Of a stretch of DNA of 44,814 nt, positions 6,350 through 40,863 are shown in pieces; position 1 is the stretch's first letter; each line of letters begins with the position of its first letter. The DNA is from Chiloscyllium plagiosum (lineage: Eukaryota). Under the pieces are notes generated by a model. That model searched no databases. It was given only the letters and a program-made list of their open reading frames with translations, and was not told where the DNA came from. A program made the position numbers and the translations under genes. The stretch spans positions 9,707,646 through 9,752,459 of the forward strand of contig NC_057757.1 in NCBI RefSeq assembly GCF_004010195.1, written 5' to 3'.

Positions 6350-6670
6350 AGATTTTGAAGTGTTGTTGGGGCTGCACCCATCCAGGCAAGTGGGGAGTAC
6401 ACCATCACACTCCTGACGTGGTTAAAAATCACACACCACCAGGTTATAGTCCAACAGGTTTAATTGGAAGCACAAGGAGCGTCACTCCGAAAGCTAGTGT
6501 GCTTCCAATTAAACCTGTTGGACTATAACCTGGTGGTGTGTGATTTTTAATTTTGTAACACCCCAGTCCAACACCAGCATCTCCAAATCATGACTCCTGA
6601 CGTGTGCCTTGTAGATGGTGGACAGACTTTGGGAATTAGGATGTGAGTTATTTGCTGAGGATTCCTAGGA
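6350..6670 (-). mobile_element. Fragment of a second (non-canonical CR1/L2-group) LINE, split by a PLE insertion
   Basis: Reverse complement matches 37255-37380 (YKAQ.RS.MEYSP.AWM.AAPTTLK). Confidence 0.8.
6421..6592 (+). mobile_element. Penelope-like family B short fold-back insertion
   Basis: Perfect 53-bp inverted repeat 6422-6474/6498-6550; 42-nt tail; exact 12-bp TSD ACTCCTGACGTG at 6409-6420 and 6593-6604; 3' half of a hammerhead (GGAG...CTCCGAAAGCTA) in the loop. Confidence 0.85.
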
Positions 6671-6989
6671 ATGTAATGTTTGTGTATAATAGTTAGCTGT
6701 ACTAAATTACTGTTGGATTCTTCACTGTCACCATCTCCACTCAGTTTCAGACATTCTGGGTGATCAGGTAAACATCCAGCTGGAGGCAAACTCACATCAC
6801 TTCAGGTTAAAGTTTATCCCCCAGTCACCATCACAAAAAAAAAAGATGAGCTTATCATTTGACTCTTTGCTGTTTCCAGGACCTTAGTGGGTGATAGTGG
6901 CCATATTACAACAGTCATCAATACCACTCTGTAACCTAAGGATGCCCCATGCCAATTTGTTTTTATCATGAATACATTTCAGAAGTAGC

Positions 6990-7283
6990 ATAGAATCCTT
7001 ACATTGTGGAAGCAGGACATTCATTCCATCAAGTCCACACTGACCTTCCAAAGAGCATCCCACCCAGACCCACCATCCTACCCGATCCCTGTAACCCTAT
7101 ATTTCCCATGGCTAATCAACCTAACTTGCACATCTTTGGACTGCAGAAGGAAACTGGAACACACCCACGCTGGCACTAGGAGGATGTGCAACCTCCACAC
7201 AGACAATTGCCCGAGGCTAGGATTGAATGCAGGTCCCTGGTGCTCAGAGGCAATAGCACTAACCACTGGGCCACCATGCCACC
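6990..7283 (-). mobile_element. HE1-like V-SINE
   Basis: Similar to the other copies across head, V-domain and tail. Confidence 0.88.
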
Positions 7284-7627
7284 TCAAAGTGCGACCCCTC
7301 TGTGGTATCCTCCAAATCTGCAACTCTCCAAGTTACCTGTGCCTTTTAATTTAGGCCTGTTATTCATTTCCAATTGGCTGTGCATGAAGTTTTCTGACCG
7401 TAAGCTCTGACAGCTCTAATGAATTGTCCTGTTGAGATCTGTTTGACATTGCCAGAGCTGCTGAGTTTTTCAAACCCTTCCTGTTTTATTCTGTAACTCC
7501 TGTGTTTGGCTGCAGAGGTGGGGTCACTGCTATGTCAGTCAGCAGTGCAGGCACAAAAAGGATCTAGAGGGCCACAAAGTGACCTAATCACTTTGTCTGG
7601 TAATTTTTACCTCGTACCAGGATTGGT

Positions 7628-8215
7628 TAGAGTCTTAGAGTCATAAAGTCCTCCAGCCTGGAAATAGGCCTTTTGGCCCAAATTGGTCCTTGCTGACCAA
7701 AATGTCTATTCACGCTAACTCCATTTCCTTGCACTTGGCCCAAATCTTTCTGAACCTTTCCTATCCATGTATTTGTCCCAATTGCCTTTTAAATGTTGTT
7801 AATGTACCCGCCTCAACTCCTTCCGCTGGCAGCTCATTCCATATGCTACCCCATTTTGTGTATAAAAATGTTGCCCCTCAGGTTCCCTTTTATTCTTTCC
7901 CCTCTAACCTTAAACTGATGCCCTCTAATCCTCAATACTCCAACCCTGGGAAAAAGACTGAGTGCTTTCACCCTAACCATGCCTCTCATGATCTTATACA
8001 CCTCCAAAAGCTCCCCTCTCAGGCTCCTACGTTCTGCAGAAGAAAGCCCTAGCTTGTCCAACTTCTCCCCATAACTCAGACCATTGAGTCTTTGTAAATT
8101 TCTTCTGCACTCTTTCCAGTTTAAGAACATCCTTCGTATATCAAGGCGACCAGAACTGAACACAATACTCCAAGTGAGGCCTCACCAGCTTGCTGTACAA
8201 TTACAGCATAACTTC
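7628..8215 (-). mobile_element. CR1 LINE 3' fragment
   Basis: ORF 7846..8163 (LSYGEKLDKLGL..ERRSLRGELLEVYKIM); TAGAGTC tail. Confidence 0.9.
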
Positions 8216-8391
8216 AGTGTCTTAGACACACACTCTTTCCGAGACTTTAACCTGAAAGATGATAAAGGAAGGTCTCACACTGCAGCTGCTACGTTGTTTT
8301 TGGCAAATTAATTTCACACAGCCCTGGGCACGAATGCACATTCACAGGACAGACTGTTCACATCACAAAGGGTTGCAAATCACTGTCTTAC

Positions 8392-8438
8392 CTCTGGTCC
8401 CTTGCTGAATCCATCTGGCCAGCAGAGACAGCCGAGAG
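8392..8438 (-). other. Candidate 47-nt exon of an unidentified minus-strand gene
   Basis: Minus strand: ccctgcttctcgtctcccccag|CTCTCGG...ACCAGAG|gtaaga; open in all three frames; unique sequence. Confidence 0.4.
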
Positions 8439-8559
8439 CTGGGGGAGACGAGAAGCAGGGTCACAGAGAATTGGAGCATTAGGGAGGCAGATGACTGGGT
8501 AAGAGCAACAGGGCATGGGTGAGGGGAGTATGGAGTGCAGTGCATATCGTGTAGCAGGG

Positions 8560-8895
8560 GGTTACTGACTGAGAAAGAGCTGTTGATTGAGGGGCAGAGA
8601 GTGAGGGAGGGCATAGTGAGAGAGTGTGTAAAGCGAAGGTGGTATAAAGTGAGTGAGTGAGTGATAAAATGAGAGGAGTATATATTGAGGAGGGTATAAA
8701 GTGAATGGTTATACAGTAAGGGGTTATAAAGAGTGGGGGAGCTGCGCAAGGGGATATAGACTGAAGGTGACACAGAGTGAGGAGGTATAAAGTGAAGGGT
8801 TTTACAGTGAGGGGTTATAAAGAGAGGGGGTATTGTGCAAGGGGATATAGACTGAAAGGGACACAGAGTGAGAAGGTATAAAGTGAAGGATAGGG
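8560..8895. repeat. Purine-rich degenerate tandem repeat (GGTATAAAGTGA-like units; ~110-bp higher-order duplication)
   Basis: AAGGGGATATAGACTGAA.G.GACACAGAGTGAG.AGGTATAAAGTGAAGG occurs at ~8748 and ~8839. Confidence 0.8.
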
Positions 8896-9263
8896 TCGCC
8901 CATGGGGTGATGCTGTTGGTTGGTACCAGGCTGGAGGACACAGAATCAGAGTATTTTTGGCCTGATCCCAGGATACTCCCTACTGAACGCCATCAATCAG
9001 GCTAACAAGGAGCAACTCTCTTCTACGTTCCAGCCAACAGAGCTGGGGTTGGGCTGGGAGCTTTAGCAACACACTGCAGCAGCTGAATCTTTATTATCCC
9101 AGCACATCGGGGGCAGGGCCTGCTGTCTGTCCCCTTCATGTGGTTCTGATTAAAGTTCATGTCTTGGTCAAAGGACGCAAGAGAGGAAACACAGGTAGAG
9201 AGAGCTGTAATTGGAGATGAGGGGTGCTGCAGCAACTCTGCAAGGTAGACCCAGCAGTGTGAT

Positions 9264-9391
9264 CGTCCTGAAGAAGGGCTTATGCCCGAAACGTCGATTC
9301 TCCTGCTCCTTGGATGCTGCCTGACGTGCTGCGCTTTTCCAGCAACACATTTTTCAGCTCTGATCTCCAGCATCTGCAGTCCTGACTTTCT
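9264..9391 (+). mobile_element. Penelope-like family A 128-bp insertion
   Basis: Exact 14-bp TSD CCCAGCAGTGTGAT at 9250-9263 and 9392-9405; matches 33830-33919 and 34990-35086. Confidence 0.87.
9268..9295 (+). ncRNA. Minimal type I hammerhead ribozyme motif (family A)
   Basis: CTGAAGA-A-GGGC(TTAT)GCCC-GAAA-C-GTC; helix I is weak (2-3 bp). Confidence 0.7.
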
Positions 9392-9654
9392 CCCAGCAGT
9401 GTGATTGACAGTGAAAAGTGGAGGTGCCTATTCTCACAATAGTACTTACTTCCAGCATTGGGAATGAGACCTCACTGACTTAGCATTAATTAAATTGTCA
9501 AGTGCTCAATGGTAAAGTAGTTTTTTAATTCTTTCATGGGATGTGGACATTACTAGCGAGGCCGGCATTTATTGTCCATCTCTAATTATCTGATTGGCTG
9601 GCACAATCATTTCAGAGGGCAGTTATGATCAACTACAGTTTTAAGACAAGGAGT

Positions 9655-9905
9655 AGGAGGTTTATTGAGGAAAATTACTTCACCCAGCAGTGAGTGGATA
9701 TAGAGAACTCGATGCCTGAAAGGGTGGCACAGCCATGAACAATCAAGATATAAGAAGTATTTAGATGAGCAGTTAAAATGCCATCTCATACAGGGCTATA
9801 GGCCAAGTGCTGGAAAATTGCGACGAGAGCAGATGGATGATTGATATAACTGGTGCAGATAAGATGGGCTGAAGGGCCTTCAGCAGTCCTATAAAAGCTC
9901 ACAGT
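9655..9905 (+). mobile_element. CR1 3' fragment
   Basis: TTGAGGAAAATTACTTCACCCAG...GGGCTGAAGGGCCT, a CR1 3' end. Confidence 0.75.
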
Positions 9906-9909
9906 GCTG

Positions 9910-10265
9910 TGAGTCATTGAGTCCTAGAGTCCTACAGCATGGAGACTGGCCCTTTGGCCCAAACTGGTCCATGCCAACCAAACTGTCCATCCATGCTAAC
10001 CCCATTTCCTTGCATTTGGCCCATATCCTTCTAAACTTTTCCTACCTATGTTTTTGTCCAAATGCCTTTTAGATGCTGTTAATGTACCTGCCTCAACTAC
10101 TTCCACTGGCAGCACATTCCAGCTCTGTGTTAAAAATATTGCCCCTCAAGTTCCCTTTTATTCTTTCCCCTCTAATCTAAATTGATCCCTCTCCCCAACC
10201 CTGGGAAAAAGACTGAGTGCATTCACCCTATCCATGCCTCTCATGATCTTATGCACTTCTACAAG
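9910..10265 (-). mobile_element. CR1 3' fragment, same subfamily as 7628-8215
   Basis: Closely similar to 7628-8010. Confidence 0.88.
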
Positions 10266-10978: not shown

Positions 10979-11301
10979 GGGTGGCACGGTGGCACAGTGG
11001 TTAGCACTGCTGCCTCACAGCGCCAGAGACCCGGGTTCAATTCCCGCCTCAGGCGACTGACTGTGTGGAGTTTGCACGTTCTCCCCGTGTCTGCGTGGGT
11101 TTTCTCCGGGTGCTCCGATTTCCTCCCACAGTCCAAAGATGTGCAGGTCAGGTGAATTGGCCATGCTAAATTGCCTGTAGTGTTAGGTAAGGGGTAAATG
11201 TAGGGGTATGGGTGGGTTGCGCTTCGGCAGGGCGGTGTGGACTTGTTGGGCCGAAGGGCCTGTTTCCACACTGTAAGTAATCTAATCTAAATCTAATCTA
11301 A
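10979..11301 (+). mobile_element. HE1-like V-SINE, young full-length copy
   Basis: A box TGGCACAGTGG 10990-11000; B box GGTTCAATTCC 11034-11044; V-domain GTGTGGAGTTTGCACGTTCTCCCCGTGTCTGCGTGGG; CR1-like 3' end; (AATCT)n tail; CpGs retained. Confidence 0.95.
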
Positions 11302-11304
11302 ACA

Positions 11305-12020: not shown

Positions 12021-12249
12021 TGGTTGTACACCAACAATGGACACAGCCAGGATTTCCGGCACATTCCAATCAGGGAATAGGAGATTCTGTTTGTATCATT
12101 TGTGACAGAAATCAGTATCGAAGTATTTTGATGTAAGTACTGTAAATCAGAACTTCCACAGGGCAAATTAATCTTTAATGAAACTAGATGGAGATCAGGA
12201 AATCTCATATTTGTACAGCAACTTTTTGTGATGGCTCAAAACTTTTTAC

Positions 12250-12600: not shown

Positions 12601-12825
12601 TATCTCACAGTTTTAGCAAATATCCAGCACTCCAGAGCAAAATCTAGAAATAGAACTGATAAGATTAAACTATCCCATGGATAAGGACGTGCTCAGAATG
12701 GATAAGGAGGATTTGTTTTGGCAAATCCATTTACCAACAATATTTCCCCAGCCAATGCAGGGAGTGAGACAGAATTCCCAACCTCTTTCCAGACTGCCAA
12801 ATAATTTATGGATTGGCAATAAACG

Positions 12826-14063: not shown

Positions 14064-14084
14064 AACCTCTAGATGTCATCAAGA

Positions 14085-14737: not shown

Positions 14738-15080
14738 ATAGGATCATAGAATCCTTACAGTGCAGAAGCAGCCCATTCAGCCCATCAAGTCCAAACTGAT
14801 TGTCTGAAAAGAATCCCATCCAGACTCAGTCCATCCCTGAAACCCTGCATTTCCCATGGCTAATCCCCCTAGGTTGCTCATCCATGGATACTCGAGGGAA
14901 ATTTAGCATGGCCAATCCACCTACACACCTTTGGACTGAGAGAGAAAACTGGAGCACGCAGAGGAAACCCATGCAGACACGGGGAGAATGTCCACACAGA
15001 CAGTCACTTGAGAGTGGAATCAAACCTGGGTCCCTGGTTCTGTGAGGCAGCAGTGCTAACCACTGAACTACTGCCCCACC
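14738..15080 (-). mobile_element. HE1-like V-SINE
   Basis: V-domain and tRNA head on the minus strand. Confidence 0.88.
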
Positions 15081-15883
15081 GCCCCATCCTATATCTTTCC
15101 TTAAATATGCAGTCTAAAATTCCTGATACGTTCTTACCAAGCTGCAGTGCATTAGTAGCAAGGTTTACTTGCTCTTGTAATCGAAACCCCTCACAATAAA
15201 GACACACAGGTAACTTGCTTTTTTAATTGCTGGCCAAGACATTGTTCGAGCCTTTTGTCCTTCTTTTATGAGGCCAACCAAAGTGAATAAGCTCACACTT
15301 TGCTAAATAATATTCTTACTGTCACCTTGATGCCACTCACTTAACCATTTTGTACTGTCGTTGTGTCTGCCTCACGGTTTACATCCCTAATTCATTTTGG
15401 ATCATCAGCAGACTTGGATTCCTTGTCTCTTTGTCTAGGTCTGGAATATCGCTTGCAAATACTTCAGATTCTATAGCACTGATCCTTGTGACATGTCACT
15501 AGTACAGGTTAGAAATACCACCTGTATTCTTCTCTCTACTTCCTGTTATTGTGTACAATCATCTTTGGAACTGATGCCCTTTTAAGAACTCAATGTACAC
15601 ATGAGCCAGGCAGCAGGATGTTGTCACAAGACCACAGGCTCTCTGCAATGTAACACTCAAGGCACAGACTGTGTCTGAACATTACTCTCAAATGTATGTC
15701 ACACTTTAACTGTAAATAAGCGTTTGATTTTGGTGAAATTATTTGTGTGGTTTCTGATTGCTCCCCTCCTCCTTTGGGGCCCACAAGATTTCTTCCTTTT
15801 GTTGGGCTTTTGCCCATGGAGCCAATCACAATGAGCATTATAAAACCTCTACCTAAAATGGCAATCTGTGTCCTATTTACAAG

Positions 15884-16104
15884 TCAAAAATCACACAACA
15901 CAGGTTGTGATTTCAAATAAACAGTTTCATCTGAAATCACAAACTTTCGGAGTGCAGCCCCTTCATCAGGTGTAAACCTGTGCCTGAGGAAGGGGCAATG
16001 CTCTGAAAGCTAGTGTGATTTGAAATTAACCTGCTGGACTATAACCTGGTGTCATGTGACTTCTGACTTTGTCCACTTCAGTCCAACACCAGCAACACCA
16101 CATC
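15884..16104. mobile_element. Penelope-like family B fold-back (older copy) with two divergently oriented hammerhead motifs
   Basis: Minus CTGATGAAGGGGCTGCACTCCGAAAGTTT (~15941-15969); plus CTGAGGAAGGGGCAATGCTCTGAAAGCTA (15984-16012); tail CAGTCCAACACCAGCA as at 6564-6579. Confidence 0.8.
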
Positions 16105-16172
16105 AGGTAAGACAGGTGCCTGAAACAGGCAAATGCTTTGGACACCCATTGTCTAGGCCTTTTGAAAATGGT

Positions 16173-16315
16173 TGAAAAATGTGTTGCTGGAAAAGCGCAG
16201 CAGGTCAGGCAGCATCCTAGGAGCAGGAGATGCTTGGATGCTGCCTGACCTGCTGCACTTTTCCAGCAACACATTTTTCAGCTCTGATCTCCAGCATCTG
16301 CAGTCCTCACTTTCT
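16173..16315 (+). mobile_element. Penelope-like family A fold-back insertion (hammerhead absent)
   Basis: 45-bp inverted repeat 16173-16217/16236-16280 (1 mismatch); 35-nt tail; 15-bp TSD CCTTTT(G/C)AAAATGGT at 16158-16172 and 16316-16330. Confidence 0.85.
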
Positions 16316-20402: not shown

Positions 20403-20404
20403 CG

Positions 20405-20548
20405 TAACTGCGGATGCTGGAGATCTAAATAAACTAAAATAAAAATTGCTGGTGAAACGTTTCAAGTCCAGTGACCCTTCTTCTGTTTCCTCTCCAAGGA
20501 TGCGGCCAGACCAGCTGAGTTTTGCCAAGAATTTCTGGTTTTATTTGA
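20405..20548. mobile_element. Degraded Penelope-like family D fold-back
   Basis: AAACGTTTCAAGTCCAGTGACCCTTCTTC resembles 29008-29036 and is followed by inverted CTGTTTCCTCTCCA...CTGAGTTTT. Confidence 0.6.
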
Positions 20549-21324
20549 TTAGACCGACTGTCTGTTTTAACACACTGAATTTTCTTTCTCATTGACATCC
20601 AACAGTGGATGGTTGGAACCCACCATTAGATGGGTCAGATTGAAATCACCCCATTACGTAGTCTCAGGAGCATGCCCACTGAGATACACACCAAATGCAT
20701 TGATAGTTTACTGAATTACTGCCAGTCATTTTATTGTCTTCTGGCTTGCTCAAGAGTGGTTACAGAGAGAAAGCAAGGACACAAGAAGTTCAAACCCCCT
20801 GAGATTCTCCTCTCTCTCCTAATATTAATCCGGACAGTGCGTTCACTTGAAGCTCTATGTTTGAGCTGTCACTCAGTCTGTTAAAATAATAAGGTCAGGT
20901 TTTGAAAACTTAACTGTGAAGCTCCAAAACTGTACTGGCAACAGGACTGAAAGAATATGCCAAGTGCTACGTATTCACACTAATGTACCTGAATTATCCT
21001 TTCATCTTTTCATGAACTAATAACAACACCAACTTCATTGTCTACCCTGCAGACTGGACAGATTATTCTACCTCCAAGCACCCATGCCAGTTTAGATTGA
21101 GCGAGTGCCAACTGAAACTTTATCTTCAAGCCTCCGCAGAATGAAAGCTCCGTGCCCTACCCCCTAAATATTCTTGGCATTCTGCCTCTAACCTCAGCTG
21201 CAAATGTTCACTGGCTGCTGAGGAGAAATAGTTTGAGAATCAGTTTGAGTGGACAAATGCTTTCTTCAAATGGAAAGATGCAGCTAACTCCTGTAGGAAG
21301 TTTAGCAATGCAAGTAGGAGGAGG

Positions 21325-22822: not shown

Positions 22823-23139
22823 CACCCACTGATGGATGTCTTCTGTTGTTACAGTCTTATCTCTGCCAATCTCAACCAAAGTCCCTTCACAAGAACACAA
22901 GAAAAAGGCAAAAGCAGGCCATTTGGCCCCTCAACCTTGGTCTTCCATTTAATATGATCATGGCCAATATTGGGCTTTAATCACACCCCTGCACCTAATC
23001 ACTGAACCCTTGATTCCCTCAGAGGCTAAAAATCCATCTAACCTAGCCTTGAATGTATTCAACAACCACATCCACAACCTCCCAGGAGATAGAATTGCTA
23101 AGGATCACAGCCCTTCAAGTGAAGTCATGCAACTCCTAT

Positions 23140-23420
23140 TATTTGGAGGCAGGTCATTTAGCTTATCAAGTCCACACTGAACCTTAGTACAACATCCCAA
23201 CCAAACCCACCCCAGCCTGCACATTCCTGGACACTATGTGGAATTTACTACTTAACCAATCATCTTTGAACTGTGAGAGGAAATCAGAACACCCGGAGGA
23301 GACCCACGCAGACACAGAGCAAATGTATAAACTCCAGACGGACAGTCAATTGAAGCTGGAATTGAACCGGGGTCCCTGACACTGAGAGGTAGTGTGCTAA
23401 TCACTGAGTCACCATGGCAT
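23140..23420 (-). mobile_element. HE1-like V-SINE
   Basis: V-domain and head on the minus strand. Confidence 0.82.
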
Positions 23421-23454: not shown

Positions 23455-23750
23455 GGTGGCACGGTGGCTCAGTGGCTAGCACTATTGCCTCACAGCACCA
23501 GGGTTCCAGGTTCGATTCCAGTCTTGGGTGACTGTCTGTGGGGAGTTTGCACATCCTCCTTGTGTCTGCGTGGGTTTCCTCCCACAGTCCAAAGATATAC
23601 AGGTCAGGTGAATTGGCCATGCTAAATTGCCCATAGTGTTAAGTGCATTAGTCAGAGAGGAAATGGGTCTGGGTGGGTTACTCTTCAGAGGGTCGGTGTA
23701 GACTGGTTGGGCTGAAGGGCCTGTTTCCACACTGTAGGGAATCTAATCTA
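23455..23750 (+). mobile_element. HE1-like V-SINE
   Basis: A and B boxes, V-domain, AATCTAATCT tail; CTAAATA on both sides (possible TSD). Confidence 0.92.
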
Positions 23751-24160
23751 AATAATTTCAGCTGTCTGCCTTTCCGTCTATGTTTCAAAACTCTTAAAAT
23801 CAATGTTAGTTCACCAAGTAACCAGTGGCCTCTCCGATCTCTTTTACCATGGCACTGACACTTTGTTTCTTTGATCTATTTGCCTATTTGCCTCTGCAAA
23901 ATGCATTGGGATGCTTTTCTATATCAAAAATGCCAAACAAGCTCAACATTCGTATTGTGATGTTTGTGTAATCATATATAAATCTGACTGTAAGATTTAA
24001 CCGGGAAGTAATAATAGTCAGATATTTATCATCTTTGGGAATGGAGAGCATGTCAGAAATGTCTGTTGTGCTGTAAGCAACATCATAAAAAGGGAAGCTA
24101 CATTATTATCATGGCATCAGATCATAAACAATTATCTGATAATAGATAATATCTGACAAT

Positions 24161-27100
24161 GGGCAGCATGATGGCTCAGTGGTTAACTCTGCTGCCTCAC
24201 AGCTCCAGGGAGCAGGGTTTAGTTCCAGCATTGGGTGACTGTCTATGTGGAGTTTGCACATTAGAACATAGAACATAGAACAATACAGCACAAAACAGGC
24301 CCTTCGGCCCTCAATGTTGCGCTGACCTGTGAACTATTCTCAGTTCGCCCCCCCCCCCCCACACTATCCCAAAATCATCCATGTGCTTATCTAAGGATTG
24401 TTTAAATCTCCCTAATGTGGCTGAGTTGACTACATTAGCAGGTGGGGCATTCCACACCCTACCACTCTCTGCGTAAAGAACTTTCCTCTGACATCTGTCT
24501 TAAATCTCTCACCCTTCAATTTGTAAGTTATGCCCTCTCGTACAAGCTGACATCATCATCCTAGGAAAACTTATTTCAGTTTATAATTCTCAGATCACCT
24601 TGTATGTCTCTATCAAATCCCCCCTTAGCCTTCTTCTTTCCAATGAGAACAGACCCAAGTCTCTCAGCCTTTCCTCATGAGACCTTCCCTCCATACCAGG
24701 CAACATCCTGGTCAATCTCCTCTGCACCTTTTCAAATGCTTCCACATCCTTCCTGTAATGGGGCAACCAGAACTGTACACAATATTCCAAGTGTGGCCGG
24801 CAACCAGAACTGTACACAATATTCCAAGTGTGGCCGCACGGGCGTTTTATACAGTTGCAACATGATATTGTGGTTCTGGTACTCATTCCCTCCACCAATG
24901 AAACCAAACACACCGTATGCCTTCTTCACAGCATTATCCACCTGGGTGGCAACTTTCAGGGATCTATGTACATGGACTCCAAGATCCCTTTGCACACCCA
25001 CACGACCAAGAATCTTTCCATTGACCCAGTACTCTGCCTTCCTGTTATTCTTCCCAAAATGCACCACCTCACATTTACCTGCATTGAACTCCATTTGCCA
25101 CATCTCAGCCCAATTCTGCAGTTTATCCAAATCCTCCTGCAACCTCTAACAGTCTTCTAAATTGTCCACTACTCCACCGATTTTAGTGTCATCCACCTAT
25201 GCCTGCGTCTAAGTCATTTATAAAAATGACAAACAGCAGTGGTCCCAAAACAGATCCTTGTGGCACACGACTAGTAACCGGACTCCAAGCTGAATATTTT
25301 CCATCAACCACCACTTGCTGCCTTCTTTCAGAAAGCCAGTTTCTAATCCAAACTGCTAAATCACCCTCAATTCCATGCCTCTGCACTTTCTCCATCAGCC
25401 TATCATGTGGAACCTTATCAAAGGCTTTCCTGAAGTCATGTATACCATGTCAACTGCCCTGTCCTCATCTACATGCTTGGTCGCCTTCTCAAAAAACTCA
25501 ATGAGGTTTGTGAGACATGACCTGCCCTTGGCGAAACCATGTTAACTATCTGAAATCAAATTGTTGCTTGCGAGATGATTATAAATCTTATCTCTTATAA
25601 ACCTTTCCAAAACCTTTCCTACAACATAAGTAAGGCTCACTGATCTATAATTACCTGGGTCATCTCTACTGCCCTTCTTGAACAATGGCACAACATTTGC
25701 AATCCTCCAGGTACTAAACCTATTGAAAATGATGACTCCAGTATCAAAGCCAATGGCTCTGCTATCTCCTCCCAGAGAATCCTCGGATAAATCCCATCCA
25801 GCCCAGGGAACTTGTCTACTTTCACTCCTTCTAGAATTGATAACACCTGTTTGTAACTAACCTCAATCCTTTCTAGTCTAATATCTCGTACCACATTCTT
25901 CTCCTCTACAATATTCTCCTTTTCCTGAGTGAAAACCGATGAAAAATGTTCGTTTACCACCTGTCCGATCTCTACAGGGTCCACACTCAACTTCCCACTT
26001 CTGTCTTTGACTGGCCCTATTCCTACCTTAGTCATCCTTGTATTCCTCACATACCTACAGAAAGCTTTATTCTATTTGCTAAAGACTGCTCGTGTCCTCT
26101 CTTTGCTCTTCTTAACTCTCTCTTTAAATCCTTCCCAACTGATCCGTATCTCTCCATTGCCTCATCTGAACCATCTTGCCTCATCAACACATAAACCTCC
26201 TTCTTCTGCTTAACAATTTCTGTTGTAAACCACGGTTCCATTACCTTATCGGTTCTGTTACCTTATCACTTCCTCCCTGCCTGACAGGGACATACCTATC
26301 AAGAACACGCAATATCTGTTCCTTAAACCAGCTCCACATTTCCATTGTCTGCATCCCCTGCATTTTGCTACCCCATTCTATGCATCCTAATTCTTGCCTA
26401 ATCGCATTATAATTGCCCTTGTCCCATCGATAACTCTTGAACTGTGGCATGGACCTATCCCTTTCCATCACTAAACTAAACATTACGGAATTATGGTTAC
26501 TCTCCCCAAAGTGCTCACCTACAACTAAATCAAAACCAGGTCTGGTTAATTGCCCTTGTCCCATCGATAACTCTTAACTGTGGCATGGACCTATCCCTTC
26601 CCATCACTAAACTAAACATTACGGAATTATGGTTACTCTCCCCAAAGTGCTCACCTACAACTAAATCAAACACCTGGCCTGGTTCATTACCAAGCACCAG
26701 ATCCAGTGTGGTCTCCCCTCTTGTCGGCCCTTCGACATACTGTGTCAGGAAACCCTCCTCCATACATTGGACAAAAACTGATCCATTTGACGTACTAGAG
26801 CTATAACATTTCCAGTCAATGTTGGGGAAGTTAAAGTTCCCCATAATGACCTGTTCCTTTCACTCCTACTCAGAATAACTTTGCTAATTCTCTCTCCTAC
26901 CTCCCTGGAACTCTGCGGAGGCCTATAAAAAACTCCCAGCAGTGTGACCTCTCCTCTCCTGTTTCTAACCTCAGCCCACATTACCTCAGTAGACGAATCC
27001 TCATCAAAAGTTCTTTCAGCCACTGTTATACTATCTTTGACTAACAAGGCCATGCCTCCATCTCTTTTACCGCCTTGCCTGCTTTTAACGAAAGATCTAA

Positions 27101-27614
27101 ATCCTGGAACCTACAACATCCATTCCTCACCCTGCTCTCTCCATGTCTCTGAAATGGCCACAACATCGAAGTCCCAGGGACCTAACCATGCCGCCAGCTC
27201 ACCCACCTTATTCCGGATACTTCTGGCATTGAAGTCGACACACTTCAAACCACTTCACTGTCTGCTAGCACATTCCTGTGACCCTGAAATCTTGTCCCTG
27301 TCCTTCCTACTCTCATCCTCCTGTGCACTACAACTACATCTCCAGTTCCCATCCCCCTGCTGAGCTAGTTTAAACCCATCCGAATAGCACCAGCAAATTT
27401 CCCACCCAGGATATTAGTACCCCTCTGTGCATTCTCCCTGTGTCTGCAAGGGTTTCTTCCAGGTGCTCAGGTTTCCAAAGATGTGCAGGTTAGGTGGAGA
27501 GGCCATGGGAAATGTAGGGTTACATGGATAGGATGTGTGGGTGGGATGCTCTTTGAAGGATTAGTATGGATTCGATGGGTCGAATGGTCTGCTTCTACAC
27601 TGTAGGGATTCTAT
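24161..27614 (+). mobile_element. HE1-like SINE split in two (24161-24262 and ~27427-27614) by a 3.2-kb CR1
   Basis: The V-domain breaks at GGAGTTTGCACATT and resumes GCATTCTCCCTGTGTCTGC. Confidence 0.88.
24263..27424 (-). mobile_element. CR1/HER1-like LINE: ORF1 end, APE endonuclease, RT, 3' UTR; frameshifted and internally deleted
   Basis: GTNILGGKFAGAIRMGLN* (~27365-27420); [60 protein letters not shown]; (TTCTATG)n tail at 24263-24281. Confidence 0.96.
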
Positions 27615-27819
27615 AAATATCAGAAGCCTTGGTTTCCTGATGGAGTTTCCCATATGTGGGAGGATAGGTGAGCAGAAATAATCCTATTAGTTTCTGTTTT
27701 CTGTGCTGGACTGGAACCTAGTCTAAGATCAGGATTTGAAGACTTGCTACTTGCCAATGACAACATCCTTCGCTCTAAGAACAGGGGCTGTGGGTTCAAG
27801 GCCTAAGCACCAAGTTTCT

Positions 27820-28640
27820 CAACACCATTCTCCTGCTTTCTCCCTGTAACCCTTTGATCCCCTTGACACTGAAGAAGCTATCTATCTCAGTCAATGTACC
27901 CAATGACCTGGCCTCAGCAGCCTTCTGTGGCAATAAATTCCACAGATTCCCCACTCTCTGGCTGAAGACGTTTCTCCTTATCTCTGTTCTAAAAGTTCTT
28001 CCTGTTACTCTAAAACTGTGCCCTCAGGTCCTAGTCTATCCTACCAATGGAGACATATTTCCAACATCTACTCTGTCCAGGCAATTCAGTATTCTGTATG
28101 TTTCAATTAGATCCCACGTCATCCTTCTAAACTCCATTGAGTATAAACCCAGAGTCCTCAAACGTTCCTCTTATGTTAAGCTTTTCATTCCTGGGACCAT
28201 TCTCGTGAACCTCCTCTGAACACAATCCAGGGCCAGTACATCTTCCTGAGATATGAGGCCCGAAACTATGCATAATACTCCAAATGTGGTCTAACCAGAG
28301 CCTTATAGAGCCTCAGAAGTACATCTCTGCTTTTATATTCAAGTCCTCTCAAAATAAATTCCATCATTGCATTTGCCTTCCTATTGACTCAACCTGCAAG
28401 TTTACCTTGACAGACTCCTGGACTAAAACTCTCAAGTCTCTTTGCCCTTTAGATTTCTGAATTTTCTCCCCATTTAGAAAATAACCTCTATTCTCCCTAC
28501 CAAAGTGCATGGCCTCACAGTTTCCCACATTATACTCCATCTGCCACTTCTTTGCCCACTCTCCTAACATGTCCAAATCCTTCTGCATTCTCCCTGCCTC
28601 CTCAATGCTATTTGTCCCTCTACCTATCTTTGTAAACTTA
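27820..28640 (-). mobile_element. CR1 RT/3' fragment
   Basis: QKDLDMLGEWAKKWQMEYNVGNCEAMHFG. Confidence 0.92.
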
Positions 28641-28674
28641 GCCAGAATAATCTCAGTTCTTTCACCTAGATCTA

Positions 28675-28803
28675 GGGACAGTAGGAGGAAACCAAAGCAT
28701 CTGGAAGAAACCCATGCAGACATGGGGAGAATGTGCAAACTCCACATGACAGTCGCCCGAGGCTGGAATGGAATCTGCGCTGTGAGGCAGCAGTGCTAAC
28801 CAC
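28675..28803 (-). mobile_element. HE1-like SINE 5' part
   Basis: GGAGGAAACCAAAGCATCTGGAAGAAACCCATGCAGAC...GCAGTGCTAACCAC. Confidence 0.82.
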
Positions 28804-28894: not shown

Positions 28895-29042
28895 TAAAAA
28901 AAGACAAAAGAAAGTAAAGAACTAAGGATGCTGGAAATAAAACAAAAACAGAAAGTGTTGGAAAAACTCAACAGGTCCGGCAGCATCGGTGGAGAGAAAA
29001 CAGAACTAACGTTTCGGGTCCAGTGACCCTTCCTCAGAACTC
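28895..29042 (-). mobile_element. Penelope-like family D short insertion
   Basis: Hammerhead at its 5' end; possible 11-bp TSD TGTT(T/A)AAAGGT at 28884-28894 and 29043-29053; related to 20405-20548. Confidence 0.72.
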
Positions 29043-30202: not shown

Positions 30203-31392
30203 CATATACACACACTATATATGTACTGTATACACATCACTGTACAAACACACTGTATGTACATCCACACTATACATGTACTGTATACACATACACTGTA
30301 CAAACACACTGTATATACATGCACACTATACATTACTTTATACACACATACTGTACAAACACTGTATGTATACACACGCTATACATGTTCTGTATACACA
30401 CACACTGTACAAACACACTGTATATACATCCATACCATACATGTACTGTATACACATACACTGTACAAACACACTGTATATACATCCACACCATCTACTG
30501 TATACACATACACTGTACAAACACACTGTATATATATCCACACTATATGTATACTGTATACACACACTATACAAACACACTGTATATACATCCACACCAT
30601 CTACTGTATACACATACACTGCACAAACACACTGTATATACATCCACACCATACATCTACTGTGTACACATACACTGTACAACACGCTGTATATACATCC
30701 ACACCATACATCTACTGTATACACATACACTGTACAAACACACTGTATATACATCCACACTATATGTATACTGTATACACATCACTGTACAAACACACTG
30801 TATATATACACACACTATACATGTACTGTATACACATACACTGTACAAACACACTGTATATACATTCACACTATACATGTACTGTATATATACACACTGT
30901 ACAAACACACTGTATATATACACACTATATATGTACTGTATACACACACTGTACAAACACACTGTATATACATCCACACCATACATGTACTGTATATACA
31001 TACACTGTACAAACACACTATATATGTACTGTACACACACACACTGTACAAACACACTGTATATACATCCACACCATACATGTACTGTATACACATACAC
31101 TGTACAAACACACTGTCTATATATACAGACACTATATACGCACTGTGTATACACACATTGTACATACTGTATACACATATAAACACTACACATGCACTGT
31201 ATATACACATACTATACAAATACACTGTATACACACTATACAGGCACTATATATACACACACTGTACATACACTTTGCATACACAATGTATATACAGACA
31301 TTATACTTACACATTACACACTATACACACTGCATACCCACTGTACACAAATGCTATAAACACTGTACTGACGTTGTACACAGCCACTGTAC
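30203..31392. repeat. AC/AT-rich minisatellite, ~56-bp unit (ACACTGTACAAACACACTGTATATACATCCACACCATACATGTACTGTATACACAT), decaying rightward
   Basis: CTGTACAAACACACTGTA recurs at ~50-57 bp spacing. Confidence 0.95.
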
Positions 31393-33729: not shown

Positions 33730-33919
33730 GAGAAAGTGAGGACTGCAGATGCTGGAGATCAGAGCTGAAAATGTGTTGCTGGAAAAGTGCAGCAGGTCAG
33801 GCAGCATCCAAGGAACAGGAGAATCAATTCCTGAAGAAGGGCTTATGCCCGAAACGTTGATTTTCCTGTTCCTTGGATGCTGCCTGACCTGCTGTGCTTT
33901 TCCAGCAACACATGTTCAG
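33730..33919. mobile_element. Penelope-like family A fold-back insertion with hammerhead (33831-33858)
   Basis: Exact 14-bp TSD TATTAACCAATGGG at 33716-33729 and 33920-33933; inverted arms ~33765-33827/33857-33919; 35-nt tail; CTGAAGAAGGGCTTATGCCCGAAACGTT. Confidence 0.88.
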
Positions 33920-34072: not shown

Positions 34073-34389
34073 GGGTGGCACAGTGGCACAGTGGTTAGCA
34101 CTGCTGCCTCACAGCACCAGAGACCCGGGTTTAATTCCCACCTCAGGCAACTGTCTGTGTGGAGTTTGCACATTCTCCCCGTGTCTGCGTGGGTTTCCTC
34201 CAGGTGCTCTGGTTTCCTCCCACAGTCCAAAAATGTGCAGGTTAGGTGAATTGGCCATGCTAAATTGCCCGTAGTGTTAGGTGAAGGGGTAAATGTAGGG
34301 GAATGGGTCTGGGTGGGTTGCGCTTCGGAGGGTCGGTGTGGACTTGTTGGGCTGAAGGGCCTGTTTCCACATTGTAAGTAAACTAATCA
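34073..34389 (+). mobile_element. HE1-like V-SINE, young
   Basis: Closely similar to 10979-11301. Confidence 0.95.
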
Positions 34390-34713
34390 AGATAGGGAGA
34401 TCTCCCCTGCACTCTTGTGGATTAGCCACCCATATCTAATGGTATGGTTAGATAGCAGCCAATGGAATTAAACATCAGGTGCAGGATATAATGCTGGCCA
34501 ATCCAATGCCCACTGAGACAAATTATTATCTCCTTTCTCTGACAGAGCGAAATGCGATTTTCTATGGCTATCTTGCAGACCCAAAAGGCAGCAACTCCAA
34601 GAGTTCTGCAGTCCTTGTGTTCAGTCTCACAAAAAGTACTTAAACAGGATTTGAACATATAACCACCTGCTTCAGAGGGGCAAGTGATACCACTGGTCAC
34701 AGCAAACACCAAC

Positions 34714-35086
34714 CATCTTCCGCCTAGGAACCCTCCAACCCACAAGGGATGAATGCAGATTTCTCCAGCTTCCTCACTTCCCCTCCTCCCACCTTTTCTC
34801 AGTCCCAACCCTCAGACTCAGCACCGCCTTCTTGATCTGCAATCTTCTTCCCGACCTCTCCGCCCCCAGCCCCTCTCTGGCCTATCAACCTCACCTTAAC
34901 CTCCTTCCACCTATCGCATTCCCAACGCCCGTTCCCCCAAGTCCCTCCTCCCTACCTTTTATCTTAGCCTGCTTGGCACACCCTCCTCATTCCCGAAGAA
35001 GGGCTTAAGCCCGAAACGTCGATTCTCCTGTTCCTTTGATGCTGCCTGACCTGCTGCGCTTTTCCAGCAACACATTTTTAAGCTCT
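34714..35086 (+). mobile_element. Penelope-like family A 3' fragment: GIY-YIG C-terminus, C/T-rich UTR, mutated hammerhead
   Basis: Begins IFRLGTLQP(+1 frameshift)QGMNADF; hammerhead core reads CCGAAGA; 10-bp TSD AAACACCAAC at 34704-34713 and 35087-35096. Confidence 0.85.
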
Positions 35087-35898
35087 AAACACCAACTGTA
35101 CCAAACGTGGGAATGAGTAACAGTCATCCTAGTTAGAATGAAGAGGCAGAATCTTGCATTCCTAAGTAGAAATATCCTCTCCTTCATAAATTGAAACATG
35201 TCATGCAGTAAATTAAACATTTCACTGCCAAAGAAATGGAACAGCTCATTCCATTGCAAACCAGTGATTGAGAAATCTTACCTGTTGCCCAAACCCAGCG
35301 CCAGCTTTACCTGAGGTTAATTACTGATGGTTGATGTAAACTCTCAGTGCAAGATATGCAACACTGGAGTTCAATGGTCTGACACAGAGAGCATCAAAAC
35401 CAATGTTTTCAGCAAAACCTTGCCACAATGCTTGTAGAAAACAGCCCCACTCAGATCGTCTGGAGAGGGGGAGACTCATTTCCCTCTCAACAGCTCAACG
35501 ACATAACAAGGAAGCTTTCCCAGGAAGCATATTTCAAAGGTCAGCAGGGGTTAGGCAGCAGAACCCGCTGTAGGAAGACCCTTTCCACTTTCCCAACTTG
35601 CACGGATTCTCTGCTGGTGGGAGATGCTTGACTTCTTCACAACCTGAGTCTGGCCCAGTCTACACGGATGATGATCAGTGAGGGGAGAGGAGAGGAAGAC
35701 TACAGCCAGCTCATTCAACTTGAACTTCAAGGCTGGCTGATTCAGAAGTGTGTGACAGTGTTAATCTTGTTGCATTTTGCAAATGTTCCCTGCAGCTTTT
35801 GAGAGAAAATTTAAAAGGAAACATATGGCACATCACTGTAAAATCATGTAAATCCAGCAAAGCACCCTGAACCTCGGAATGCTTTCAACAGACAAGAC

Positions 35899-36359
35899 TT
35901 GGAGGAGCTGGTGTTGGACTGGGGTGGACAAAGTTAAAAATCACACAACAACAGGTTATAGTCCAACAGGTTTATTTGGAAACACAAGCTTTCGAGGTGC
36001 TGCCTCTGCATCAGGAGGTTGTGGAACAGGACCATAGTACACAGATTTTATAGCAAAAGGGTTACAGTGTCATGGAGCTGCAATGATAAATTAAACAAAT
36101 TTAGATTGTCTTTCTTCTTTTAGAATGGGATATGCTAGTTAAAGAATCAAAACTAGCATATCCCATTCTAAAAGAAGAAAGACTTAACCTAAAATTGTTT
36201 AATATATCATTACAGCTCCATGATACTGTAAACCTTTTGCTATATATTCTGTGTATTATGATCCTGTTCCACAACCACCTGATGAAGAGGCAGCGCCTTG
36301 AAAGCTAGTGTTTCCAAATAAACCTGCTGGACTATAACCTGGTGTTGTGTGATTTTTAA
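35899..36359. mobile_element. Penelope-like family B long fold-back insertion
   Basis: ~208-bp inverted arms 35933-36140/36151-36360, 10-nt spacer; 34-nt tail; 13-bp TSD CAA(C/T)AGACAAGAC at 35886-35898 and 36360-36372. Confidence 0.88.
36276..36310 (+). ncRNA. Minimal type I hammerhead ribozyme motif (family B)
   Basis: cac-CTGATGA-A-GAGGC(AGC)GCCTT-GAAA-G-CTA-gtg. Confidence 0.7.
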
Positions 36360-37249: not shown

Positions 37250-37812
37250 AGTGTGTAACTCAATTCCTGACTTCCCAAAACCTGCCCACTATCCTGCAAG
37301 GCACAAATCAGGAGTTTAATGGAATACTCCCCATTTGCCTGGATGAGTGCAGCCCCGACAACACTCAAGAAGCTCGACACTATCCAAAACAAAGCAATCC
37401 CTCTGATTGGAACCACATCCACAAACACCTACTCCCTCCACTACCGATGTTCAGTAGCAGCAATGTGTACTATCTACAAGATGCAGTGCAGAAGTTCACT
37501 AAAGATCCTTCTAAACCCATGACTACTTCCATCTAGAAGGACAGAGGCAGCAGATACATGGGAACACCACCCCCTGTAAGTTTTCCTTCAAGCCACTCAC
37601 CATCTTGACTTGGAAGTATATCACCGTTCCTTCACCACCATTGGGTTAACATCCTGGAATTCCTTCCCCAGTGGCATTGTTGGTCAACCCACAGCACGTG
37701 GACTGTAGCAGTTCAAGAAGGATGCTCACCATCACCTTCTCAAGGGCAGCTAGGGACAGGCATTAAACATTGGCTCAATCAGTGATGCCCACATTCCATG
37801 GGCGAATGCTAA
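37250..37812 (+). mobile_element. Second LINE family (CR1/L2 group, distinct from HER1-type CR1), 3' fragment
   Basis: ORF 37319..37522 MEYSPFAWMSAAPTTLKKLDTIQNKAIPLIG...; WNSFP-like motif at ~37655. Confidence 0.85.
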
Positions 37813-39099
37813 ATGGGCTCTGGTCGCTAACCCTGGATAAGTGTTGCAAGTCACAGGGTGATGATTACGCCAATAACAACCTTCAGATTTAATCTGGAGC
37901 TGTGGACAGCACTCCATTAATGCTTATGCTCAGTAAGTACAGTTTGCAATTCCTATTGGGCTGTCTCAATAGCAGCCTCAAAGTGAATTAAATTTGCCAA
38001 AGTGAATTAAATTTGTAGTGGGGTTTGAATCAGTCACCGGGGCCTCTGTTCACATAGACAAGGGGTTAAATGCCTGTTTCAGAGGGGTCAATAAAAATGG
38101 GTCGAGGAAAAATTGTATTCCCTAGACTTTCAGCAAGTACTTTCTGTTGACCACATTGGAGGCTTGGGAGGTGAATCAGGCCAAACAAATGTCCTCTGCA
38201 TTGGCTGAATTATTGGGTCATCATCTCACACAATGGAAACACTGGGCAGGAAAGTATTTCAGCTGCTGTTATCAGCGGATGATTGCTTCATCTGATTTTC
38301 CTCTTATTGCTTAATAATTCTCAAAACTATTCTGTTTCAAGAAGAAAACTGAATATTGCCCACATATTGATAAGTAGCTGTGTACTCTCACTGTCTATTA
38401 AATGTGAAAATCCCTTTCATCTGTGATTTCAACATGCTCAGAAGGCGCTTGATTTATTATGTCTAGCTCTGCTATAGGAAAGCAGAATCTTGAAATGCTT
38501 ACAACATTGAGCAAAGAGTCTACTGGGCTGGTAGCAGAAAGCAAAGGGCTAAAATTAGCAGAGTATTAGTGAGAACCATTTACCAATTCAAAAGATAACT
38601 GTAAACAGAAGTTAAATTGAATCATTCTGACCTCAGCCCTCAATCTGATGTAAACTGTTGTGGTTGATATGCAAGAGAGGAAATGTCTAAGGTCAGGAAC
38701 CATTAGTGCAGCCATTGGTGATATTGATTTGAGAATTGGTCCAAAATGCTGAGTTAGAGATCACAACTAAATGTACTGAGTGAAGGAACAGTTCCTCCAC
38801 TGTTTATCTTCCACTGCGGCTGCAATAGGTAGGAAGGAAAGAGCAGACGGAGCTGCCTCGCCCTTTCCTTCGGTGCTGAACTACAGATGGAAACAACCAT
38901 GAGGCTGCAAGGCACAATCTGATTATTTCTTAAAGAATTCCAGGATAAAACTCCACTATTTCCTCCAGATTTCAGCACATGCTCACATCGATTATCCAGG
39001 CCCTCCCTCATCAGGGGTCTCCATCAGCTCCCGGCTGTAGTTTACAAAACTAACATGGGGAAGGAGGGATTGGTAAGAGATGTGTGGGCTAGGGGAGGG

Positions 39100-39340
39100 G
39101 GAGACACAGACTGAGAGAGAGAGAGAGAGAGAGAGAGACTGTAAGAGAGATACACACAGACTGAGAGAGAGAGAAACACAGTCTGAAGAGGAAGAGAAAG
39201 AGAGAAACACAAATTGAGAGAGAGACAAACGGACTGGGAGAGGGAGAGAGAGAGACAAACACAGACTGAGAAAGAGATATACAAGCTTTGAGAAACAGAT
39301 CGAAGAGGAAAAGAGAAACACACATTGGGAGAGAGACTGA
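39100..39340. repeat. (GA)n-rich simple repeat
   Basis: Directly visible. Confidence 0.93.
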
Positions 39341-40049
39341 ATCCTAAGTCAGGTCTGACTTCAGATGTGCCTTGTTGTACAATGTGTCTGTTTTGTGAAT
39401 GGGTGATTTTGATGCTGCTTCTCCTGAGGACTGAATCTCACCTCTTTAAAGCTGGAGCAGTCAGTGTGTGGTGTTTCAGTCAGCGAACTGAATTGATTTT
39501 CAGTTTAATTCATAAACTTATAACTTGCTGTGCACTGTGAAAAGCCATCATTCTGTCCGAAAACTTTGATCAGAAGTTATTTCTAACAAGTATTTTGTTA
39601 GATTGGTGTTTCTCCTGGTGGTTGACACTAAAAGGCCATTGTGTAGTTTGAATTAAAAATTACTTCTCCTTAAATCTTTCTACCTCTTTGATTTAAAAAT
39701 GCTGTTATCCATCTCGTGATAAACGCTGCCAGTATTTTATTTGGGGCACAGTGATACTAAGACACAAAGATACATGGAACAACATTTTACAAACACAAGG
39801 CCCTATCTCAAATTCAAAGGCCATGTGGTCAAATGTCACATGATGGAAACTTCAGAACACCTCCAATCAGAGTGAGCAACCGTTTCTTTGCTGATGCTAA
39901 CAGAATGTAACAACCTCAAGATACTGTTGGCGATTTCACCATCTTGTCACCCTTTCAGGCAGCCATATTGAAAATGACTGACTTATACTAACATTGCTGA
40001 TGTCAATGTTTTTGTATTGGTTGCAGAGTACAGAAAAGCAAGAGGGAAT

Positions 40050-40381
40050 TTTATTTTTAGTTTATTCATGGGACATCAGCATCGCTGGCTAGACCAGCAC
40101 TTATTGGCCATGCCTAATTGCTGTTAGGGAAGTTAAGAGTTGCTGTGGGGTCATATGTGGGTCAGATCAGGTAAGGATGGCAGTTTGCTTCCCTAAAGTA
40201 CATGGGTGACAGATAGATTTACCCCCAGCAATTTCATGTCACCATTGGAGTATTAATTCCAGCTTGTTTAAAATTAATTCAAATTACATCATCTTTCGCT
40301 GCCAGATTCAAACCCCCAGAATATTACCTGGGTCTCTGGATTAACAGTCCCACAATAATACCACGAGGATGTCACCTCCCC
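40050..40381 (-). mobile_element. Second tRNA-SINE family copy
   Basis: Resembles the reverse complement of 32160-32520. Confidence 0.8.
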
Positions 40382-40414
40382 ACAACACAGTCACCATATG
40401 ACTCCTATAATATT

Positions 40415-40863
40415 TTGTTGTGGTTCTGTTCGCCGAGCTGGGAATTTGTGTTGCAGATGTTTCGTCCCCTGTCCAGGTGACATCCTCAGCGCTTGGGAGC
40501 CTCCTGTGAAGCGCTTCTGTGATGTTTCCTCCGGCATTTATAGTCATTTGTACCTGCCGCTTCTGGTTGTCAGTTCCAGCTGTCCGATGTGCTTATTGAT
40601 TGAATCTGTGGATGAGCACTCATCAACCTGGACCCAATATACCGGCCACTGCAGCGGACAGCTGGAACTGACAACCGGAAGCAGCAGATTCAAACCACTA
40701 TAAATGCCGGAGGAAAGATCACAGAAGCGCTTCACAGGAGGCTCCCAAGCACTGAGGATGTCACCTAGACAGGGGACGAAACGTCTGCAACACAAATTCC
40801 CAGCTCGGCGAACAGAACCACAACAACGAGCACCCGAGCTACAAATCTTCTCACAAACTTTGA
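40415..40863. mobile_element. Penelope-like family C fold-back insertion with ORF C-terminus and hammerheads
   Basis: Inverted arms ~40415-40583/40654-40826; 37-nt tail; 14-bp TSD ACTCCTAT(A/G)ATATT at 40401-40414 and 40864-40877; LDPIYRPL and inverted SSTDSINKHI peptides. Confidence 0.9.
40749..40788 (+). ncRNA. Minimal type I hammerhead ribozyme motif (family C)
   Basis: gca-CTGAGGA-T-GTCaCCT(AGAC)AGGgGAC-GAAA-C-GTC-tgc. Confidence 0.78.

Follow-up and report, generated by a model that had tools for sequence, protein, structure and literature searches.

Short inserts with minimal hammerhead motifs in a 45-kb stretch of the Chiloscyllium plagiosum genome and their likely origin from Penelope-like elements

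Hammerhead motifs and insert architecture

The region described here, a stretch of 44,814 nucleotides from the genome of the shark Chiloscyllium plagiosum (NC_057757.1, positions 9,707,646 to 9,752,459; hereafter the window), contains 11 short inserts that together make up 2505 bp or 5.6% of its length (Table 1). A first-pass annotation of the sequence had described about ten inserts, in agreement with this count, and had assigned them to four unrelated families of Penelope-like elements (PLEs), termed A to D, each built around the same minimal hammerhead ribozyme design. Profile searches of the window detect 10 arms of A/D, 6 of B and 2 of C; as the family profiles were built from the same copies, the search shows only that the window holds no further copy found in this way. 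The inserts, which are duplication-flanked and often head-to-head, are likely to be 5′-truncated reverse transcripts of the pseudo-long terminal repeat (pLTR) of three PLE lineages, and are probably mostly inert as ribozymes in place.

A strict descriptor, combining the core with one extra base, a stem II of at least 4 pairs, a loop-less stem III and a cleavable triplet, identifies seven minimal hammerheads in the window, at 9268, 15984, 33831, 36279 and 40752 on the plus strand and at 15969 and 29037 on the minus strand, versus 1 match in total in 300 dinucleotide shuffles (1-kb blocks). The motif scan bears out the core positions given earlier for all of these except 15969; the B copy that had been placed near 15941 exists as well, but it lies on the minus strand (15969-15941). 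Five additional copies are damaged or partial. One of them, at 34993, had already been described as mutated, and its core indeed reads CCGAAGA. The damaged motifs at 40489 (-) and 36015 (-) and the partial ones at 6474-6496 (+) and 20483-20456 (-) extend the earlier list. DNA and RNA sequencing runs were compared over positions 34500-36140, which comprise inserts A3 and B1 with their flanks, and family reads restore the intact core at the damaged copies, in 655 of 677 reads at position 34994 and in 211 of 225 reads at position 36008.

All seven intact motifs contain the catalytic core CUGANGA ... GAAAN-N-UH without loop 3, and the proposed extra base after A9 (before 10.1) and loop-less stem III hold in 7/7. 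The G10.1-C11.1 pair is G-C in five of the seven and G-U, at a CpG site, in two B copies; both forms of this first B stem II pair are present in family RNA reads (404 and 449). The palindrome ascribed to stem III (positions 15.1-16.1), which would permit pairing in a dimer, is ACGU in A, C and D and AGCU in B, but AGUU in B copy 15969, and it is broken in the C minus arm (40489). Similarly, stem II mostly pairs as was stated, with the exception of one A-G mismatch among the 7 pairs of C, the G-U first pair in two B copies and a broken loop-closing pair in 3/5 B copies. Between A and D, pair 4 differs (C-G versus U-A), while 2 of the 5 pairs of B stem II are changed on both sides, with 89% of cells paired versus 18-57% when the stem is slid. 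Stem I measures merely 2-3 bp in A, B and C, and the triplet of copy 33831 is GUU, not GUC.

The recurrence of one design had implicitly been treated as unexpected, but the shared features are those of the consensus of metazoan PLE hammerheads published in 2014 (Cervera and de la Pena, 2014; PMC4209133). According to the available text of that study, these motifs have a type I core without loop 3, an extra base between 9 and 10.1, a G10.1-C11.1 pair and a palindromic 15.2-16.2, they occur as several families per genome, mostly as solo motifs from truncated elements, and they include opposite-strand pairs 100-700 bp apart; they are reported there in fish Xena, Poseidon and Neptune elements. A search of Rfam at expect values (E) up to 5 returned 24 rows for the window, with no hammerhead among them, which makes these motifs invisible to routine annotation. 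MicroRNA genes were rejected as candidates: the Rfam microRNA rows stem from hairpins of the inserts themselves and from a tandem array, and every one scores under the gathering threshold.

Target site duplications (TSDs) were sought at the 10 inserts other than D3 and, with lengths of 10-16 bp, flank 8 of them, that of D1 being weak. Seven inserts have head-to-head inverted arms, and in six (A2, A4, B1, B2, B3 and C) one arm is 30-40 nt shorter than the other, leaving a tail on one arm. In contigs from DNA run X1 and from run X9 of another species, B 3′ ends pile at 35899/35900 (839 and 1569 in X1, 959 and 1668 in X9), with a second pile at 35930 (589 in X1, 684 in X9). At the long B 3′ end, other window copies run approximately 8 nt past that of the diverged reference B1. 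An inverted truncated copy, a tail at one end and a TSD constitute the signature of endonuclease-bearing PLEs (10.1101/2021.04.23.441226; PMC8557442; PMC3846280), for which the consulted parts of the latter two sources (Craig et al., 2021; Arkhipova et al., 2013) likewise describe truncation at the 5′ end, a truncated copy next to it in inverted orientation, a 30-40-bp tail at one end, TSDs and microhomology junctions. In contrast, the rotifer examples have TSDs of 8-10 bp, and most shark inserts consist of two inverted stubs alone. The inverted pairs are explained in PMC3846280 by self-priming, with an antisense strand as the template. For the Poseidon element of Anolis, the portion consulted describes the tail as the segment that separates two internal reverse-transcription starts, with cleavage and extension of both strands of the target (Frangieh et al., 2024; PMC11167929).

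The 5′ ends of the copies cluster at the hammerhead. Among 17 arms with readable 5′ ends (D3 was dropped as too decayed), 11 start at the motif, namely 5 that begin 1-5 nt ahead of the core, 2 within it and 4 at 1-4 nt past the predicted cut; one starts at +14, and the remaining 5 start far upstream, at 128-279 nt. The two arm starts of B3 were read by eye, since the aligner gave other values owing to the reference. Post-hoc binomial values for this clustering are 0.0008 and, for the four arms just past the cut, 0.003, with the arms of one insert not being independent. The depth of raw RNA reads is in line with this clustering: over A it amounts to 29-64 at listed positions from 34777 to 34931, 677 at 34994 and 1163 at 35008, and over B to 170 at 36016, 66 at 36032, 36 at 36037 and 22 at 36089. 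For A the step in DNA-contig depth is smaller, approximately 7-fold; such steps are blurred by clipping at diverged positions and by subfamily differences. At hammerhead loci of the same design in metagenome contigs the enrichment is mild: 21 of 67 measured 5′ ends lie within 20 nt of the core and 32 beyond 80 nt, a count that left out 42 of 124 motifs (no family of four) and 15 without upstream DNA. A literature search, with subscription journals mostly outside its reach, found no title or abstract stating 5′-end clustering at a PLE hammerhead, nor is it stated in the consulted parts of PMC8557442 and PMC3846280.

Table 1. Inserts of the window and their features (window positions; TSD, target site duplication; UTR, untranslated region; ORF, open reading frame)
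Feature	Lineage	Position	Hammerhead	Arms and ends	TSD
B3	B	6421..6592	partial, 6474-6496 (plus arm)	arms joined head-to-head inside hammerhead; plus arm starts at ~A9 and bears tail; minus arm starts 2 nt past predicted cut	12 bp, 6409/6593
D3	D	7443..7507 (+)	none left	decayed fragment; nhmmer E 1.2e-10 with a profile that included D3
A1	A, solo	9264..9391 (+)	intact, 9268-9295 (GUC)	start 2 nt before core; tail at end	14-16 bp, 9250/9392
B2	B	15880..16107	back-to-back, 15969-15941 (-) and 15984-16012 (+)	arms start 3 and 1 nt before respective cores	none found
A4	A	16173..16315	none	head-to-head arms start 4 and 14 nt past predicted cut	13-15 bp, 16158/16316
D2	D	20403..20550	20483-20456 (-), motif minus first two bases	minus arm starts inside core, lacks ~45 nt after cut; plus arm starts 3 nt past cut	none found
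D1	D, solo, homologous to A	28895..29042 (-)	intact, 29037-29008 (GUU)	start ~5 nt before core	weak, 11 bp, one mismatch
A2	A	33730..33919	intact, 33831-33858 (plus arm, GUU)	plus arm starts 4 nt before core; minus arm starts at first base past predicted cut, bears tail	14-16 bp, 33716/33920
A3	A, longest copy	34714..35086 (+)	34993-35020, core mutation	frameshifted GIY-YIG-type coding end 34715-34760, then pyrimidine-rich UTR	exact 10 bp, 34704/35087
B1	B	35899..36359	36279-36307 (+, CUA); 36015-35987 (-, core damaged)	175-nt arms, 90% complementary, reaching central hairpin	13 bp, 35886/36360
Poly(A) signal, minus strand	B	35956..35976		AATAAA 35976-35971 (-); addition points 35959, 35956
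Twin poly(A) signal	B	36317-36322 (+)		in plus arm of B1
C	C	40415..40863	40752-40785 (plus arm, GUC); at 40489 (minus arm), stem III mutation	175-nt arms, 94% complementary; plus arm: last 47 codons of Poseidon-type ORF (stop 40766-40768), ATG of next ORF at 40758, 38-nt tail	14 bp, 40401/40864

In the D2 insert, the deletion of approximately 45 nt from the predicted cut leaves a 12-bp perfect palindrome (20450-20461) centred on stem III.

Three lineages and their links to PLE proteins

Contrary to the earlier proposal, the four families are not all unrelated. Sequences of A and D located 3′ of the predicted cut align with a score of 62 versus a shuffle mean of 17.6, and 0 of 2000 shuffles score as high, whereas for each of the other five pairs between 31 and 1372 of the 2000 shuffles score at least as high. 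The families therefore represent three lineages, A/D, B and C, and four independent origins were rejected. The suggested PLE origin is directly supported for C by matches to proteins with reverse transcriptase (RT) motifs, one of which has a GIY-YIG-type end, and indirectly for A/D by a putative endonuclease end, whereas B is placed by its architecture only.

For lineage C, the 48 codons that end inside the hammerhead match 4 of 29 candidate proteins with 81-90% identity, all of them named Chiloscyllium punctatum by the source. One of these, P0002, combines an RT domain with a GIY-YIG-type end, which was read from the sequence and not scored by Pfam, and has no zinc-finger linker. The absence of this linker points to the Penelope/Poseidon clade, with clade names here assigned by presence or absence of the linker. 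Downstream, the C frame from the ATG at 40758 matches P0005, a 656-amino acid RT protein, at 95%, and P0005 overlaps P0002 at 88%; an 832-amino acid relative starts at the same methionine. Both ends of the PLE frame thus match RT-bearing proteins. The hammerhead overlaps the stop codon at 40766-40768 as well as the ATG at 40758, the latter being formed by A9, the extra base and G10.1. Within the segment 40752-40785, the hammerhead motif therefore coincides with the final codons and the stop of a first PLE frame and with the ATG that opens the following one.

This arrangement resembles that of PAc, the Anolis Poseidon element, in the described portion of which the ORF likewise opens where stem II starts, and the C-terminal GIY-YIG of the protein also lacks a zinc-finger linker (PMC11167929). 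The predicted cut lies 28 nt after the start codon in lineage C versus 26 nt in PAc, and the tail between two 3′ ends falls in an AC-rich stretch, approximately 70 and 106 nt into the ORF in C, versus one site at 111-118 in PAc. Unlike in PAc as described there, the stop codon of the previous ORF is also located inside stem-loop II of C, of which the window holds the end piece only. The hammerheads of the window would work like PLE pLTR hammerheads, and that of C is one.

Three other predicted Chiloscyllium proteins, P0001, P0004 and P0006, are chimeric and combine lineage C sequence with exons of the host; one example is a 5′-nucleotidase-domain isoform ending in the PLE endonuclease tail. 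They may be the result of exonisation or of annotation error.

For lineage A/D, the start of A3 contains two frameshifted halves of a putative endonuclease end (approximately 15 codons), which rank 1 and 2 of 2811 window fragments in a comparison with a profile of 13 endonuclease ends. The extra base between these halves is absent from 23 of 26 family RNA reads. In metagenome contigs, a scan with the A/D design gave 123 loci, approximately one tenth of the collection's matches, and of the 99 hammerheads there with enough upstream DNA, 21 have the endonuclease-end motif 131-203 nt upstream, compared with 0 of 119 on the downstream side. One locus, L005, carries an RT, a zinc-finger linker and a GIY-YIG domain of the Neptune/Nematis type between two same-design hammerheads; A/D is probably Neptune-type. 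None of the four families has a blastn match of at least 45 nt in the 123 loci, and the loci are therefore analogues in design and not copies. The A-type pattern has no match in viral contigs. The element in L005 (1061-3608), a near-complete PLE on an animal-associated metagenome contig, lies between inverted and direct hammerhead-bearing repeats.

Abundance, polyadenylation and cleavage

The idea of a very large ribozyme-bearing population is supported by the number of contigs that match the 1.6-kb stretch 34500-36140, i.e., 101,697 in the single DNA run X1 and 128,350 in X9. Summed depth reaches approximately 1.2e7 over the A and B ends versus 21-30 on the flanks, which is not a copy number. 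Contig depth, the presence of 11 inserts in 45 kb and a genome size that is assumed to be a few billion bases together suggest at least 100,000 copies per major lineage. The motif density looks far above the 4,000-9,000 motifs of coelacanth and Xenopus given in the available text of PMC4209133. In the second species, a single contig covers the sequence from A3 to B1 (35061-35922) and reaches approximately 25 nt into each insert, short of the 31 letters required for bridging, which hints that both insertions predate the species split.

Lineage B carries a normal poly(A) site, located 28-31 nt past the predicted cut. In X21, a single-cell poly(A) library from one sample of which approximately 2% was read, 1,036 RNA reads leave B into runs of T (669 at 35956 and 367 at 35959; mean depth approximately 1600). 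An AATAAA precedes these points by 15 and 12 nt, and GU/U-rich DNA follows them. The strand expected for B-sense RNA predominates among first mates (1181 to 430), and AATAAA or ATTAAA is kept in 4/6 B arms. The reads stem from B copies anywhere in the genome, the flanks of B1 being without reads. Internal oligo-dT priming was rejected as their source, as the DNA past 35956 is GU-rich and not A-rich. The polyadenylated B RNAs end at least 26 nt before both 3′ ends of the genomic copies and therefore cannot be the template for reverse transcription. Head-to-head B inserts offer a poly(A) signal on both strands. Should many loci make use of this site, the inserts would influence the 3′ ends of transcripts in the shark. 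The literature search yielded no published report of a B-type poly(A) site in PLE hammerhead stubs; in mammalian Clec2, a hammerhead between the stop codon and the poly(A) signal lowers expression, according to the consulted part of PMC6765202.

Minimal PLE hammerheads described in the literature show no activity as monomers and weak activity as dimers (PMC4209133), and cleavage by the Anolis motif depends on the protein of its element (PMC11167929), both as given in the portions consulted. In the head-to-head inserts, partner motifs are on opposite strands, so no dimer can form within one transcript, and the 175-nt arms, with 90-94% complementarity, would sequester the motif within an RNA duplex. 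As ribozymes, most copies are probably inert. As 853 RNA reads continue uncut through the B stem II and core, the uncleaved motif exists in polyadenylated RNA; the short 3′ product of cleavage is lost from a poly(A) library, and no cleavage rate follows from these reads. X21, which is poorly suited to this question, shows no pile of RNA read ends at the predicted cut. The six largest piles of loose ends in each run all lie away from the cut positions, and thus fewer than 367 RNA reads are clipped at any such base.

Origin of the inserts

How the inserts would arise as reverse transcripts of PLE pLTRs can be outlined as follows. The protein of the element would nick both DNA strands approximately 10-16 bp apart, and reverse transcription would be initiated at two internal positions of the RNA that lie downstream of the hammerhead and are separated by 30-40 nt, both steps being drawn from published PLE work. 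A single product would yield a solo copy. If two products became joined by their distal ends, a head-to-head pair with a tail on one arm would result, a step that is proposed in the present analysis. Most products would end at the hammerhead. The copied RNA may begin just upstream of it, which is the leading possibility although with somewhat less than an even chance. Alternatively, the polymerase may stop and two products may anneal through the motif's own stems, for which roughly a one-in-three likelihood is estimated. Thirdly, and with still less probability, the RNA may already have been cut at the hammerhead. In the parent element, the motif would be expected to cleave slowly, as a dimer or with the protein of the element.

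The third option, generalized, would make some copies reverse transcripts of hammerhead-cleaved RNA and their 5′ ends a fossil record of cleavage in the cell. This is unlikely, although it retains some appeal through the four of 17 arms that start directly past the cut (A2 minus at +1, B3 minus at +2, D2 plus at +3 and A4 minus at +4). However, seven other arms keep all or most of the motif, and annealing through stem I can explain the same junctions, such as that of A2, which joins core -4 to cut +1. The RNA data add no pile of ends at the cut and include the uncut reads through the B motif, and the consulted part of the Anolis study likewise describes RNA-seq without ends at the cut (PMC11167929).

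A somewhat less probable explanation holds that B, and perhaps A/D, is a non-autonomous mini-element of approximately 100-130 nt, resembling a short interspersed nuclear element (SINE) or a retrozyme, which has its own transcription unit and borrows PLE proteins. It is consistent with B having its own poly(A) site and no protein link found, with the approximately 900-fold drop in B contig depth from 1.2e7 (bin past the cut) to 1.3e4 (50-100 nt upstream) and with the consensus of clipped B contig ends, which breaks approximately 3 nt before the core in both species. Part of the drop, however, is due to divergence of the B1 reference (the 853 RNA reads are clipped at its stem II). Moreover, both B1 arms reach 128-139 nt further upstream, A3 extends into coding sequence and the polyadenylated B RNAs, ending short of the genomic 3′ ends, cannot be the template. 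Non-LTR retrozymes, which have been described for a single chondrichthyan genome (Li, Clavereau and Pollet, 2026; 10.64898/2026.07.22.740005), share with the inserts type I hammerheads, a PLE pLTR origin and solo monomers, but are defined in the available text by tandem units with at least two consecutive hammerheads. A tandem retrozyme array was accordingly rejected for the window, in which 0 of 28 tandem-repeat rows overlap a hammerhead.

Lastly, chance hairpins in ordinary repeats without ribozyme ancestry are highly improbable: Rfam does not recognize the motifs and their folding energies as monomers are unremarkable, but an identical 15-base core recurs in three lineages that are otherwise unlike, and among 108 distinct same-design motifs from other animals two features that the pattern leaves unspecified are common, base 17 being C, U or A in 106 and stem I at least 3 bp long in 82.

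Several results weigh against the preferred origin from PLE pLTRs. The two halves of the A3 endonuclease end score weakly (E = 0.034 and 0.6), and a direct protein search with the short endonuclease end of A gave 8 candidates, none significant. For B, no coding sequence was found in the 135 nt available upstream, a B-specific pattern scan of the metagenome contigs returned nothing, and the covariation score, based on five sequences only, is matched by 32 of 500 shuffles and thus not significant. No TSD was found at B2 and D2, and the sequences compared contained no full-length element of A, B or D. Furthermore, monomer folding gives z values of -2.4 to +0.9, which are unremarkable save for D, and 3 of the 7 motifs are not hammerhead-folded at minimum energy.

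The class to which these motifs belong has been known since 2014, and the window adds shark members to it. No shark is named in the consulted text of PMC4209133 or in two of its supplement files, and the literature search found no paper on a shark PLE hammerhead. Because the set of copies is dense, counting can address at which point the template RNAs of PLEs begin and whether hammerhead cleavage takes place in the cell. A bolder picture, which is rather unlikely to hold as a whole, can be sketched. In it, the end module would have seeded approximately 100,000 sites, often in both orientations, with a working poly(A) site 30 nt past a hammerhead. Host transcripts would end inside the module, a ribozyme cut would remove their tail, and the pile of 5′ ends, some exactly at the cut, would record starts and cleavage of germ-line PLE RNA.

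Other repeats in the window are of different kinds. A dispersed SINE-like family of approximately 300 nt, presumably akin to shark HE1-type SINEs, has copies on the plus strand at 10980-11293, 23455-23754, 34074-34394 and 41694-41908 and on the minus strand near 5231-5526, 6984-7284, 14740-15080 and 23121-23413. Many broken reading frames (1126-1966, 7846-8181, 24590-27110, 27779-28795 and 43781-44807) are taken to represent reverse transcriptase and endonuclease of CR1/L2-type long interspersed nuclear elements. At 30204-31347 lies a 1.1-kb AC/AT-rich minisatellite with periods of 13, 28 and 56 nt.

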